Shown piece by piece: positions 15,001-18,000 of a stretch of 49,296 nt of DNA (position 1 is the stretch's first letter; each line of letters opens with the position of its first letter). The stretch is from Candidatus Nanohaloarchaea archaeon. GTDB taxonomy: Archaea; Nanohalarchaeota; Nanosalinia; Nanosalinales; Nanosalinaceae. A program made the position numbers. The stretch spans positions 1 through 49,296 of the forward strand of contig JBDGSE010000014.1 of assembly GCA_042217695.1 (NCBI GenBank), in the 5' to 3' direction.

Positions 15001-18000
15001 CGTGTCGTTGGACACTGCTTTCCCGACCGCGAGAGGGCTGTAGGCCGTTAACATAACACCGTTATCCGCACAGTACTCCAGCATATCCTCCTGGCTGTTG
15101 AACGGGTTGTACTTCACCTGGTTCGTAACTATGGGAGAATCCGAGAGCTCTCTCGCCCGTTCCAGCTGTTCGATCGAGAAATTGCTCACACCGATGTGGT
15201 TGACCTTTCCCGATTCCTGCAGCCGGTTCATCGCGTTCACGGTCTCCTCCAGCGGTACAGCGTCGGAGGGCGCATGGATAAGCAGGAGATCTATGTAATC
15301 TGTCTTCAGGCGGTCAAGACTGTCATCTACCGACTCCAGGACACGTTCCCAGGTCATGTTGGGTCTGTCAAGTTTTGTAACCAGGAAAACCTCGTCCCGG
15401 TCCACCTCCGACTCCTCTATCGCAGAGCCTACCGCGGCCTCGTTGCCGTACATCTGTGCTGTGTCAACGTGTCGGTAACCTGCTTCGAGACCCTCGATAA
15501 CAGCTTTTTTGCATTCCTCCCCCTCCATCCGGGCTGTTCCCAGTCCCAGCGAAGGTATATTTACGCCGTCCACCTCCACATACTCCATAGTAAAAAATTC
15601 CTCTCGATACTCAAGAATCTACCGGTCCTGCAAGGATTAAAGAATCTAACCGGTCAAAACACTCACAGGCCTCGGTGGCTCAGCCGACTGGTTACGCTCA
15701 GTCGACACGCAATACAAGCTACTGTTTGCCTGTAAGCCTCGGTGGCTCAGCCTGGCTAGAGCGGTCCCCTCGTAACTGGTTACGCTCAGTTCCTACGAAA
15801 ACCGGAAAACGGTTTTCTAGGGCAGAAGACCTCTATGAGGTCTTCAAGACACCATGCGAACAGCATGGCCTTCAGTTAAAGATCAGGGCTTTGCGAGACA
15901 GGGACAGGTCGCGGGTTCAAATCCCGCCCGGGGCTTTTTTGGCGCGGGATTTGAGGGGTTCGAATCTGAAGTTCTGACAGAGAATTTCTGCCCCAGAAAA
16001 TCCTGAGGATTTTCGTAACCGTCCGGGCATACTATCTGGATTCTGCGACCAGTTTGAATGTTTCCTCCCTTTCCACAGCTTCCTCCACTTCAAGGTGTTC
16101 AGAGACTTTTTCCGCCGCTGTTTCCGCGTCAAAGCGTCCTTCCAGTGGAGGGCCGCGTTCCCCGCTTCCGGACCGGCTCCAGTCGAACACCACGAGTTTT
16201 CCGCCATCAAGTATCTCCGCAAAGTTCTCTAGCGCGGCGTCCACATCCAGCTCGTGGAAGGAGAATACAGAGAAGATTGCGTCCACGCGACCGGTATCCA
16301 GGTCCGAGGCTCTTGACCGGACGAGTTCGACGTTTCCCGGGAGCCCTTTCTCCCGGTAGTGGTGGTGCATCTCTTCCTGGAAATCGACGGCGTAAACCTT
16401 TTTCGCTTTCGAGGCCAGGTCATCGGTGAAGAAGCCTGTGCCGCTGCCTATCTCTGCCACGATGTCTCCGTCCACGTGCTCCAGAAGTTCCTCTCTTGAG
16501 ACGTACCGGTAGCGGGCATCATCCTCCAGTTTCTCCGCTGACGCGGCATCCATCACGTGGTCGTCCATACATCTTCTTGAGGCCTCACGGTTTTATTTCT
16601 CTGAGTGAAAAGCTTTCCGTGAGGAAGAGCTACCTGGTCCCCGGCCTGTTAATGGCTCTGAAACCCGCGACAGCGCAGTCGCTGAACTCTTCGCAGCTGC
16701 AGCAGTTCTCCCAGGTACCGGAGTTCTCGGTCTGGATGATATTCGGTGCTCTACTGTTGCAGTTCGCGCTGGAGTCCGCGCTCATCTACCTCTCGGCACG
16801 TTTCTTCCTGGGCGAGTCGAAGCCCTGGAAGGCGGCCAGCATCGCAGGAATCGGCATTCCTTTCCGCATGCTGACAGGGATGATGCCTTTCATCGGTATC
16901 TTGGTCGGGCTGTGGGGTTACTGGTATCTGGCCCGTATAGGGTTCGATGCCAGCTATTTCAACGCTTTCCTGGTCGTCGCACCGGTATACGCGTTTGAGA
17001 TAGGTCTCCGAGTTTTTATAGCGGGATTGGCCTGACGGAAAGAAGATTTAAACCAGCTTCACAATTTTTCTATAGGGTGAACTGAACTGGAAGAAAGAAT
17101 CGGAGATCTGGCCGGCGAAGTATGGGACTACCTCCAGGAGGAGGATGAGAGTTCCCTGAGCGGGGTTTCACGGGCTATCGATGCACCGCAGTCGAAGGTA
17201 AACATGGCGCTGGGTTGGCTGGCCCGCGAGGGAAAACTGGATTTCGTGGACAACGGCCGCGGCACAAGCGTACGCCTGCGGTAGGAAAAAGTTTAATTCT
17301 CCGACCACTAATTCTGGTCCATGTCTCTCAGAGCAGGAGCAGAAACTATAGTTGAACAGTGTCTCGATGTCAAACCCGGGGAAAAAGTGGTCGTGGTCAA
17401 CGACGGCAACGACCCCGAATTGATCGACGCAGTTCTTGAAGTGCTGGACGAGACCGGCTGCAAGCACGAGCTGATGGAGTACCCGGAGCCGGAGAACCAC
17501 GGCACCGAACCCCCAGAGGACGTTGCGGAAGCCATGAGAGACGCCGACGTTTTTATCGCCCCGACAAAGAAGTCGCTCAGTCACACCCAGGCGAGGGAAG
17601 AAGCCTGCGAGGCAGCTACAAGAGGGGCGACCCTTCCGGGCATCAACAGAGAGATCTGGAACTCCAGTTTGCAGGCGGACTACTCCCGGGTGGAGGAGAT
17701 AACCGAGAAGGTGTACTCGATGCTGGAGGAAACCTCTGAGGTCCGGGTGAAGACGCCCTCCGGCACGGACTTCACCTTTGAGGTGGACTTTGACTCTTTC
17801 TTCACCGACACAGGCATGATAGAGGACCCCGGAGAGTTCGGGAACCTGCCGGCGGGAGAGGCCCATGGAGGCGTCCGTAACGGTTCAGGCACCATAGTTA
17901 TCGACCATTTCCCGTTCGCACCTTCCGGCACGGAGGTGAGGGTCGAGGATTCCCGGGTCGTGGACATCGAAGAGGCCGGTTCCTCGGAACTGGGACGGAA

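Follow-up and report, generated by a model that had tools for sequence, protein, structure and literature searches.

Introns of archaeal tRNA genes are typically a few tens of nucleotides long. In the window analysed here, a stretch of 49,296 nt from a nanohaloarchaeal genome, the tRNA-Thr(CGU) gene carries an intron of 125 nt, and much of this intron recurs in the tRNA-Lys(CUU) gene of the same genome. How did one sequence come to interrupt two non-cognate tRNA genes?

'Transposition' of introns between non-cognate tRNA genes was described in Thermoproteales by Fujishima 2010, as summarised in a 2014 review (PMC4090602), which regards the mechanism as unknown and presumes it to operate on DNA. 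In DPANN archaea, including one nanohaloarchaeon, tRNA genes have been reported to be disrupted markedly more often (PMC5829648; L3-loop alpha4 EndA). By the accessible text of these sources, it is thus already on record that DPANN genomes are rich in tRNA introns and that introns 'transpose' from one tRNA gene to another. A 2026 preprint on introns of Asgard archaea says, in its accessible part, that 'how they arrive remains open'.

The tRNA-Thr(CGU) gene and the tRNA genes of the genome

All features of the Thr locus lie on the + strand. The Rfam tRNA model RF00005 matched positions 15736-15935 with 41.8 bits (E 1.4e-5; gathering score 29). This was the sole gathering-level Rfam match in the window, and its alignment covered the whole model (positions 1-71 of 71), with 127 nt inserted in the anticodon loop. 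ARAGORN reported Thr(cgt) with intron i(41,125) when introns were allowed. The Rfam alignment and ARAGORN placed exon 1 (positions 1-37) at 15736..15774, with the anticodon CGT at 15771-15773. Exon 2 (positions 38-73) was placed at 15900..15935 by the Rfam alignment and the fold, with the discriminator U at 15935. The intron of 125 nt (15775..15899) lies between them at position 37/38, one base 3' of the anticodon, which is where the survey's finding had put it; the Rfam insertion, the ARAGORN call and the fold supported this placement. As expected of a bona fide tRNA host, the exons formed a complete cloverleaf above the Rfam threshold. ARAGORN detected no other Thr(CGU) gene in the genome, and the 21-mer of the exon preceding the intron was identical in 29 Thr-CGU loci of other genomes of the family.

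When introns were disallowed, ARAGORN found 0 tRNAs in the window and 10 in the 757-kb genome. With introns of 0-300 nt allowed it found 24 genome-wide, 15 of them intron-bearing (51-144 nt by ARAGORN borders). Since Ile-GAU on contig C30, one of the 24, runs off its contig, the earlier count of 15 intron-bearing genes among 23 complete ones was recovered. It had also been claimed that 'Leu-GAG' on contig C2 is an intron-bearing Ile-UAU and that some ARAGORN borders are wrong. ARAGORN itself labelled this gene Leu-GAG without introns and Ile-UAU with them, and by eye the introns of Ile-UAU and Arg-UCG measured about 116 nt and about 70 nt, respectively. These results indicated that default tRNA finders overlook most tRNA genes of such genomes.

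A candidate archaeal TATA-like box, TTAAAG, was seen at 15637..15642, 27-32 nt upstream of a duplicated tRNA 5' end described below. TTTAAA or TTAAAA boxes also occur about 30-40 nt upstream of other tRNA genes in the genome and of Thr orthologs. On the 3' side, sequence reading of 15936..15966 revealed a T-run (15936-15940), followed by an inverted partial copy of the T-arm (GCGGGATTTGA) and GGGGTTCGAATC. This region is a decayed form of the trailer hairpins found after other tRNA genes.

Structure and predicted splicing of the Thr intron

The minimum free energy (MFE) fold of the Thr precursor contained the anticodon stem, a 3-nt bulge ACA, a helix CUCGUA/UGCGAG and then the first hairpin of the intron, P1 (15774/5-15791). 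Downstream of P1 the intron contains hairpins P2 (15792-15822) and P3 (15825-15845), a GACAC (15848-15852), hairpin P4 (15852-15868), a distal UCAGUU (15872-15877) and a CGAG (15894-15897) that pairs with CUCG of the anticodon loop (15769-15772). A scan for the bulge-helix-bulge (BHB) motif gave h=5 (the anticodon stem), H=CTCG/CGAG, bulges TAA and ACA, an intron of 125 nt and h'=1. The motif was therefore found in the relaxed hBH form; the MFE fold agreed on the 3' bulge, while the 5' splice site lay outside a canonical 3-nt bulge in that fold and the outer helix h' was 1 bp in the strict scan.

The Thr intron is, by its predicted fold, an archaeal protein-spliced intron of the BHB type with a relaxed hBH. 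In the precursor the anticodon stem would be followed by the 4-bp helix of loop CUCG with intron CGAG, with a 3-nt bulge next to it on each strand: UA|A marks the 5' splice site and AC|A the 3' splice site. In place of the second outer helix that is usual for such introns, the intron may use its 5' hairpin P1, or AACUGG may pair with the distal UCAGUU. A splicing endonuclease encoded by a single gene would then cut in both bulges, and the exons would be ligated by RtcB with archease. The survey had listed all three proteins, and profile searches located them: EndA in one gene (185 aa; C8:8409-8690, minus strand; PF01974 at 93.6 bits), RtcB (553 bits) and archease (104.6 bits). The intron is thus like other archaeal introns at 37/38 spliced by EndA and RtcB in its position, its 4-bp loop-intron helix, its two 3-nt bulges and the encoded enzymes, but differs from them in being 125 nt long, in having h' missing or replaced by a conserved 5' hairpin, and in that its splicing is predicted here rather than observed. 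The genome also resembles the disrupted DPANN tRNA sets of PMC5829648 in its high intron load, here with one 185-aa EndA gene; a conserved family of intron sequences is not described in the accessible text of that paper, unlike the element reported below.

Other known arrangements fitted less well. Both exons are collinear at one locus, and the upstream fragment duplicates exon 1 without replacing it, which speaks against a split or permuted tRNA gene. A structured, conserved RNA in a long tRNA intron is also known from tRNA-Trp, where, by the accessible text of PMC12558985, a C/D box sRNA is released by splicing. The Thr intron differs from it: in 15775-15899 neither a C box (RUGAUGA, searched as TGATGA) nor a D box (CUGA) was found, Rfam gave no snoRNA match, and no C/D or H/ACA boxes were seen on reading the sequence.

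Recent copying between the Thr and Lys introns

The survey had reported 89% identity over 100 nt between the introns of Thr-CGU and Lys-CUU. Our blastn comparison reproduced it (8 mismatches, 2 gaps, E 1.9e-30). The last 20-25 nt of the two introns differ, and each tail pairs with its own anticodon loop. The Lys intron ends in CCAGAAGAGUU, which pairs with its loop CUCU, and its fold is close to the canonical hBHBh'. The 3' strand of its P1 has been lost. We then compared the Thr intron with 29 other stored Thr loci (27 CGU, 2 UGU), and none gave a blastn match at E<=1e-3. Since the Thr intron is closer to the Lys intron than to any orthologous Thr intron, the sequence was copied recently within this genome.

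Matches of 73-89% identity to the core of the intron (nt 1-78, or 1-57) also came from 7 other genomes, as the survey had stated. All 7 belong to the same family, and among them the core sits within Ala-UGC (L005, L008, L015) and Asn-GUU (L007). At E<=0.01, core matches were present in 11 of 49 family genomes versus 0 of 51 genomes from other families. Alike introns in tRNA genes of different isoacceptor families are the mark of transposed introns sensu Fujishima 2010. So are alike introns at canonical as well as non-canonical positions: the 4 intron copies of this genome are all at 37/38, and in the wider set P1 follows breaks in the D-, anticodon- and T-loops.

Whether this copying created a new intron is a separate question. 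An intron at 37/38 was present in 20 of 28 orthologous Thr-CGU loci, many of them starting with P1 variants, and in 14 of 30 Lys-CUU loci, at least 6 of which start with P1 or a variant; 6 of the 28 and 15 of the 30 were intron-less, counts that are not polarised for gain versus loss. Because such orthologs in other genera often already carry a P1-starting intron at this position, the event may have been replacement or gene conversion rather than a new gain. In its full form, this alternative does without any move to a new site: Thr-CGU and Lys-CUU would each have inherited an old 37/38 intron of this family, and ectopic gene conversion would have homogenised the first 100 nt of the two. The ortholog counts suit it, and so does the fact that the identity ends at the host-specific 3' tails, which is what conversion of the homologous core alone would give. 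Yet the long-form core (P1-P2-P3) also lies in Ala-UGC, Asn-GUU, trailers and a non-tRNA site of other genera (73-89%), and therefore it does reach new sites. The lineage-specific leader copy described below likewise shows that insertion does occur. We regard conversion without movement as plausible but somewhat improbable. The recent transfer claimed earlier thus stands as copying within the genome; rather than a new gain of an intron, it may have been a conversion of resident introns.

A family of P1-box elements

The shared intron is, judged by sequence and predicted structure, one copy of a wider family of small structured elements. These elements begin with a 5-bp hairpin P1 with loop GUUACGCU, followed by an ACGCA(A) box and a variable hairpin; long forms have two extra hairpins. 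A search in which the stem was left free recovered 68 copies, spread over 27 of 50 genomes of the family, against 0 in the control. By hand count, 5 of 5 P1 pairs were formed in 55 of these copies and 4 of 5 in the other 13, with 16 different fully paired stems. All five pairs of P1 co-vary by this count. When up to 3 mismatches were permitted, the pattern gave 120 matches in 38 of the 50 family genomes versus 7 for the reversed control, and no match in the remaining 12, a patchy presence. The survey was right that Thr-CGU and Lys-CUU share an intron; the two are not a private pair, as the family also occurs in leaders, trailers and non-tRNA DNA.

The exact 18-mer was present in at least 117 loci of genome_contigs, and 71 of the 80 titled rows among the matches listed were archaeal, mostly labelled Woesearchaeota or nanohaloarchaea. 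By these sequence matches, the family is spread through nanohaloarchaea and metagenome-assembled genomes labelled Woesearchaeota and other DPANN. In IMG/VR the 18-mer had 1 chance match, in coding DNA with neither box nor tRNA, and the longer P1-plus-box pattern had 0 matches. Rfam at E<=1 on 15 element loci returned only tRNA and chance matches. Literature matches listed for the motif strings GGTTACGCTC and GGUUACGCUC were unrelated by their titles, and the titles and abstracts on tRNAs of DPANN and Nanohaloarchaea, a search scope without bioRxiv supplements and paywalled papers, did not describe a conserved intron element. As summarised in PMC4090602, the introns of Fujishima 2010 belong to another lineage; what distinguishes the nanohaloarchaeal and DPANN introns is a defined, co-varying 5' hairpin and box that they share.

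A lineage-specific copy in the leader of tRNA-Thr

A second, short copy of the element lies in the leader of the same gene (15686..15735). It consists of a P1 hairpin (15686-15703; stem GACUG/CAGUC, loop GUUACGCU), the box GACACGCAA (15704-15712) and a weak hairpin (15713-15734). Directly upstream is X1 (15669..15685), an exact 17-nt copy of tRNA-Thr positions 1-17 (GCCTCGGTGGCTCAGCC). X1 with the element, a block of 67 nt, was found at 1 of 30 Thr loci, the present one, and the 29 orthologous loci are empty sites beside this filled one. The short copy with its 17-nt repeat is best read, from this comparison, as a lineage-specific insertion.

A tRNA-Thr 5' fragment upstream of an intron-bearing copy is also known at tRNA-Thr(GGU) of Caldiarchaeum subterraneum. 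According to the accessible text of PMC3293823, the intervening DNA there is 1.8 kb long and encodes a recombinase, whereas at the present locus it is a 50-nt non-coding structured element. Splicing of the leader X1-element-X2 as a D-loop intron was considered, and no in-register bulge-helix-bulge was found. The idea of a lineage devoid of RNase P, in which EndA would be forced to remove the leader, was rejected: RNase P RNA was not found in this genome but was detected in 32 of 50 family genomes. RNase Z is present in the genome.

Sites of the copies and the nature of the element

Where the copies sit was analysed over the wider set. They start right after breaks in the D-, anticodon- or T-loop, directly after tRNA 3' ends, and in some cases in non-tRNA DNA. 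Of 138 copies, 15 were inside introns called by ARAGORN and 7 began 0-2 nt past a tRNA 3' end; the preceding feature was a T-loop break for 16, a full 3' end for 12 and the D-arm for about 21. The 5' flank was repeated exactly over at least 10 nt just after the element in 16 of 145 copies, some at the starts or ends of open reading frames. These flank repeats vary widely in length, from 10 to about 88 nt, with direct repeats of 15-90 nt around some non-tRNA copies, and those at tRNAs stop precisely where the mature tRNA starts or ends. To our knowledge, no known insertion mechanism predicts such repeats, which are found at few copies, are variable in length and end at mature tRNA ends. The element differs in these respects from the introns of Fujishima 2010, as far as PMC4090602 summarises them: it is also found in leaders, trailers and non-tRNA DNA, with flank duplications and a filled versus an empty site.

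The probable explanation is that the Thr intron is a copy of this element family, that the elements colonise tRNA genes at the DNA level, that the Thr/Lys pair goes back to recent copying in this genome, and that the leader copy is an insertion particular to this lineage, with splicing predicted, mobility and its mechanism putative and any direction of copying presumed. An element landing in a tRNA loop whose flanks can form a bulge-helix-bulge could persist as an intron, its 3' tail adapting to the host loop. One landing at a gene end could persist as a leader or trailer, removed by RNase P or RNase Z.

More tentatively, the P1-box elements may be a new class of non-autonomous mobile elements of DPANN, about 50-130 nt long, which duplicate a stretch of their target and are the source of the tRNA introns of these archaea. 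On this reading, an insertion in a tRNA loop would do no harm from the start, provided that the flanks, or the target duplicate itself, can fold as a bulge-helix-bulge. The elements do not behave as a transposon or MITE with terminal inverted repeats and a target-site duplication of fixed length, given repeats of 10 to about 88 nt, 3' ends that are not conserved and no linked enzyme. No transposase, integrase or reverse transcriptase was tied to the element, and a search of this genome, which is 82.7% complete, did not detect RVT_1 (PF00078). Were the mobile-element reading true, the arrival of tRNA introns in archaea, a long-open question, would become testable with a defined element, and the family may show how the tRNA introns of tiny symbiotic archaea arise.

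The missing mobility gene also suits the view that P1, box and hairpin form a selected small RNA, or a cis-acting processing module on tRNA transcripts, so that the copies are genes rather than parasites. Such an RNA might be released by the splicing endonuclease from introns, by RNase Z from trailers and by RNase P from leaders, and would in this resemble C/D box sRNAs that are linked to tRNAs or carried in introns. In 27 family genomes and distant lineages, the loop GUUACGCU and the ACGCA box do not vary while the stems co-vary, and this exact conservation fits functional selection at least as well as selfish spread. Several copies with the same conserved segments occur per genome. Trailer copies begin 0-2 nt past the tRNA end and often have a T-run after the variable hairpin (L031, L041, L051, L130), which would give a defined RNA of about 55-60 nt. 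On the other side, the elements match no Rfam family, and the Thr intron has neither C/D nor H/ACA boxes. No target or binding partner was identified; rRNA genes, sought as targets of the conserved loop and box, were not found in this assembly. The elements are distributed patchily, with no match in 12 of 50 family genomes; copies decay, as P1 of the Lys intron has done; and some insertion process is required in any case to account for the flank duplications and the filled versus empty site. We hold a functional RNA to be rather unlikely as the explanation, although it and the mobile-element reading are not mutually exclusive.

It is highly improbable that the gene is a pseudogene in decay, or a chimera of two similar introns created in assembly, and yields no functional tRNA: the non-canonical 5' site, the extra 5' fragment in the leader and public contigs that break inside the intron (none among those listed covers 15764-15845 without differences) would fit it, but the exons give a full cloverleaf above the Rfam threshold in the sole Thr(CGU) gene found, the exon 21-mer is shared with 29 Thr-CGU loci elsewhere in the family, the 3' tail pairs specifically with the loop of this tRNA, and the Thr and Lys introns differ at 8 positions and 2 gaps, so that they were not collapsed in the assembly. 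A search for RNA runs containing the locus listed none. In four DNA metagenome runs, the sequences aligned here were tRNA-Thr exons of many other organisms, whose introns differed or were missing, and no variant informative for this locus was seen.

On the question of how such introns enter genes, this locus and those related to it provide a co-varying tag by which one intron family can be recognised, copies of one element within introns, at the ends of tRNAs and, with duplicated flanks, in ordinary DNA, and a lineage-specific filled site beside 29 empty ones. This is material for testing DNA-level insertion against RNA-level routes, and for asking what the conserved hairpin serves as a handle for, the splicing machinery or another protein. 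Duplicated tRNA ends were also searched for an in-register bulge-helix-bulge. None was found for the 3'-end duplicates of this genome's tRNAs. An example for the more tentative mobile-element reading comes from Lys(CUU), where two copies of tRNA positions 1-13 (GGG-CCGG-UAG-CUC) pair as a perfectly two-fold symmetric hBHBh'; cuts in it would link position 9 of the upstream copy with the gene's position 10, so that the correct tRNA results. Among 30 loci, 6 that belong to 5 genera retain this upstream copy of the Lys-CUU 5' end.

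The tRNA-Thr(CGU) gene and its intron

The only match at gathering level for any Rfam model in the 49-kb window was a tRNA-Thr gene at 15736-15935 (+), which scored 41.8 bits against a gathering score of 29. The alignment matched 71 of the 71 model positions, and the anticodon loop contains an insertion of 127 nt. ARAGORN in default mode found no tRNA over the window; with introns allowed, it reported tRNA-Thr(CGU) with a 125-nt intron. Reading of the sequence put exon 1 at 15736-15774 (anticodon CGT, 15771-15773), the intron at 15775-15899 and exon 2 at 15900-15935, all on the plus strand, and these intron borders are those of the survey's finding. 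The acceptor stem is GCCUCGG/CCGGGGC with discriminator U, and the locus is also contained in salt-lake metagenomes. The gene, its intron and the intron similarity described below are real.

In the minimum free energy (MFE) fold of the precursor, the anticodon stem is followed by a 3-nt bulge (AC/A), a helix that pairs the loop with the intron end, and then directly the first hairpin of the intron. The motif scan gave h=5, H=4, two 3-nt bulges and h'=1, a relaxed bulge-helix-bulge. It follows from this structure and from the gene content that EndA would cut at the relaxed motif and RtcB would act afterwards. EndA (one 185-aa frame), RtcB and archease are encoded in the genome, as the survey had reported, and so is RNase Z.

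The tRNA genes of the genome

The assembly, taken to be that of a nanohaloarchaeon (DPANN), has 757,484 bp in 44 contigs (C6 is the window) and is 82.7% complete. ARAGORN called 10 tRNAs without introns allowed and 24 with them, and 15 of the 24 have introns, 51-144 nt long by the borders that it sets, which bears out the heavy intron load first noted in the survey. Its caution that some borders and labels were wrong also held, since by eye the intron is about 116 nt in Ile-UAU and about 70 nt in Arg-UCG. Heavy tRNA disruption is already known in DPANN (PMC5829648).

At C2:25193-25385, the tRNA-Ile(UAU) gene, ARAGORN sets the 3' intron border too early by about 18 nt. An Ile tRNA with the anticodon UAU is rare in archaea, where a modified CAU is mostly used instead. 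The 87-nt call "tRNA-Arg(CCG)" at C40:1236-1322 has an odd sequence without a typical T-loop and is doubtful.

Recent copying of the intron

Over 100 nt, the Thr-CGU intron shares 89% identity with that of Lys-CUU (C12:6341-6460, minus), the value also given in the survey; the alignment has 8 mismatches and 2 gaps. The identity ends some 25 nt short of the 3' splice sites, and each 3' tail fits its own host: CGAG pairs with the loop CUCG in Thr, and AGAG with CUCU in Lys. The Lys precursor folds (MFE) into a near canonical hBHBh'.

The Thr orthologs comprise 30 loci, one from this genome and 29 from other genomes of the same family (28 CGU and 2 UGU). Among the 28 Thr-CGU loci, 20 have a 27-177-nt intron at the same site, 6 are intron-less and the other 2 are truncated at contig ends. 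Many of the 20 introns start with variants of the same hairpin. For Lys-CUU (30 loci), 14 have an intron, 15 have none and 1 is cut. Blastn of the Thr intron gave no match at E<=1e-3 in the other 29 Thr loci. It matched the Lys paralog and, in 7 other family genomes, elements in Ala-UGC and Asn-GUU genes (where the survey had also placed the intron core), in trailers and at one non-tRNA site. As the Lys paralog matches the Thr intron and the other 29 Thr loci do not, the intron sequence was recently copied within this genome. The survey's claim of recent transfer between tRNA genes stands in this respect; the event may have been a new insertion or the replacement of an older resident intron. 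Intron copying among non-cognate tRNAs, like that of the Thr/Lys pair, is already known in Thermoproteales (PMC4090602), whereas the co-varying module and the extra-intronic copies are features of the family described here.

A structured element family

The first 18 nt of the intron form the hairpin P1, AACUG-GUUACGCU-CAGUU. Short-form elements consist of P1, then GACACGCAA, then a variable hairpin; long-form elements, among them the Thr and Lys introns, have two additional hairpins between P1 and the ACGCA(A) box. The genome has nine copies, of which four are at intron starts (Thr-CGU, Lys-CUU, Arg-UCG and Ile-GAU), one in the Thr leader, one directly 3' of tRNA-Ser(UGA) and three elsewhere.

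With up to 3 mismatches, the P1 18-mer had 120 matches in 38 of the 50 family genomes (reversed control, 7). When loop and box were fixed and the stem was left free, 68 matches were found in 27 of the 50 (control, 0). By hand count, 55 of these 68 stems form 5 pairs and 13 form 4; the fully paired ones comprise 16 different stems, with double (compensatory) changes at 4 of the 5 pairs. Since the pairs are kept through compensatory changes, P1 is under selection as a structure.

The exact 18-mer occurs at no fewer than 117 loci in the species-representative collection. Among the matches listed, 80 rows had titles: Woesearchaeota 36, "uncultured Methanosarcinales archaeon" (as labelled in the records) 17, Bacteria 9, nanohaloarchaeal names 8 (including Nanosalina, Nanohalobium and Nanohaloarchaea), unnamed archaea 7, Nanobdellota/Nanoarchaeia 2 and Iainarchaeum 1. 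The box was absent in the five bacterial loci inspected. The Thr intron belongs to a family of structured elements that occurs in nanohaloarchaea and in MAGs labelled Woesearchaeota or other DPANN. Rfam has no family matching the P1-box element, and our literature search on the motif and on DPANN/nanohaloarchaeal tRNA introns returned no description of it. New here are the conserved module with its co-variation, the copies of it outside introns, and the signatures of duplication.

In the woesearchaeal genome G101 (loci L170-L187), 17 of 19 motif matches have in common a conserved non-coding repeat of about 330 nt, which sits between housekeeping genes at the two loci examined and within which several contigs end. 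Another module, (G)UGAUGAUCGAACUUUCAGAAGUUC, joins a box C-like word to a palindromic hairpin. It adjoins the 5' ends of tRNA-Ile(UAU) (C2:25165-25192) and tRNA-Leu(GAG) (C31:188-215, minus), has an antisense copy at C16:9510-9535, and terminates several long-form elements of relatives (L024, L033, L040).

Positions of the copies and signs of insertion

We located 138 distinct copies in the stored loci. Inside intron-bearing tRNAs called by ARAGORN there were 15; 7 start within 0-2 nt of the 3' end of a tRNA and 5 are downstream at a greater distance. A further 13 lie upstream on the same strand, 6 are near a tRNA on the opposite strand, and for 92 ARAGORN called no tRNA in the vicinity. The 26 nt preceding P1 indicate a T-loop break before 16 copies, a complete T-arm and acceptor end before 12, and a D-arm-like 5' fragment before about 21. 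On this sequence context, many of the uncalled copies are introns at non-canonical positions.

For 16 of 145 copies, the 10-29 or more nt preceding P1 are repeated exactly just after the element; on inspection the flank repeats run from 17 to about 88 nt, and some span the start or end of a protein gene. The family colonises tRNA genes and their edges. It may be a selfish DNA element, it may act as a small RNA or as a handle for processing, or it may do both. No mobility enzyme was found, RVT_1 being absent from the 82.7%-complete genome as assembled, and a search of IMG/VR showed no viral carriage apart from one chance hit. At C31:275-345, a P1 element is preceded by a partial tRNA copy in inverted orientation, made up of the first 15 nt of the adjacent tRNA-Leu(GAG) in reverse complement.

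Duplicated 5' ends in the tRNA-Thr and tRNA-Lys leaders

Positions 1-17 of tRNA-Thr are duplicated at 15669-15685, and a 50-nt short element (15686-15735) separates this copy from the gene. A TATA-like TTAAAG lies 27-32 nt before the upstream copy, the same placement as the boxes of other tRNA genes. This block of duplicate and short element was present in 0 of the other 29 Thr loci, and the locus here is a filled site against 29 empty ones. The motif search found no in-register bulge-helix-bulge across the copy, element and gene; removal of the leader would fall to RNase P. No rRNA genes or RNase P RNA were detected in the assembly, most likely owing to its incompleteness; RNase P RNA is present in 32 of the 50 family genomes.

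Upstream of Lys-CUU (C12:6499-6575, minus) lie a 16-nt copy of the tRNA 5' end and a hairpin resembling the second hairpin (P2) of the intron. Such an upstream copy occurs at 6 of the 30 Lys loci, in 5 genera; its first base differs in one locus, and one of these genes has no 37/38 intron (one base 3' of the anticodon). The two GGG-CCGG-UAG-CUC copies can form a strict two-fold symmetric hBHBh' (h=3, H=4, h'=3), whose predicted cuts would excise 62 nt and leave the correct tRNA. As a lead only, the Lys leader may be a real intron at 9/10 built from the duplication.

Duplicated tRNA ends

Duplication of tRNA ends is general in this genome. In 5 of 21 genes, the 250 nt downstream contain a copy (15 nt or longer) of the gene's own 3' end, versus 3 of 483 cross-pairs; for the own 5' end, 3 of 23 genes have such a copy upstream, versus 0 of 529. 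At 10 nt or more, with shorter or diverged copies included, the 3' count is 11 of 21, compared with 91 of 483 cross-pairs under the same length threshold. Frequently the spacer begins with the complement of the 3' copy, and trailer and copy then form a long hairpin that encloses a small GAAGC..GCTTC hairpin.

In many tRNA genes the last 11-23 nt recur as a direct copy 40-125 nt downstream; such flanks lie on C2, C3, C4, C16, C17, C19, C30, C31 and C34 and at 15936-15966 of the window. The same tRNA-Ser(UGA) 3' part is found at the start of C32 (1-60) and the end of C36 (46075-46128), and these contigs probably abut; the break point is at a P1 element where 16-17 nt of the tRNA end are repeated. 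In at least nine other family genomes (G003, G025, G023, G007, G008, G013, G021, G042 and G001), the 23-nt 3' end of the Ser-tRNA occurs twice, 72-79 nt apart. Both copies share their lineage-specific substitutions and change together between genera, and this indicates concerted evolution of the pair.
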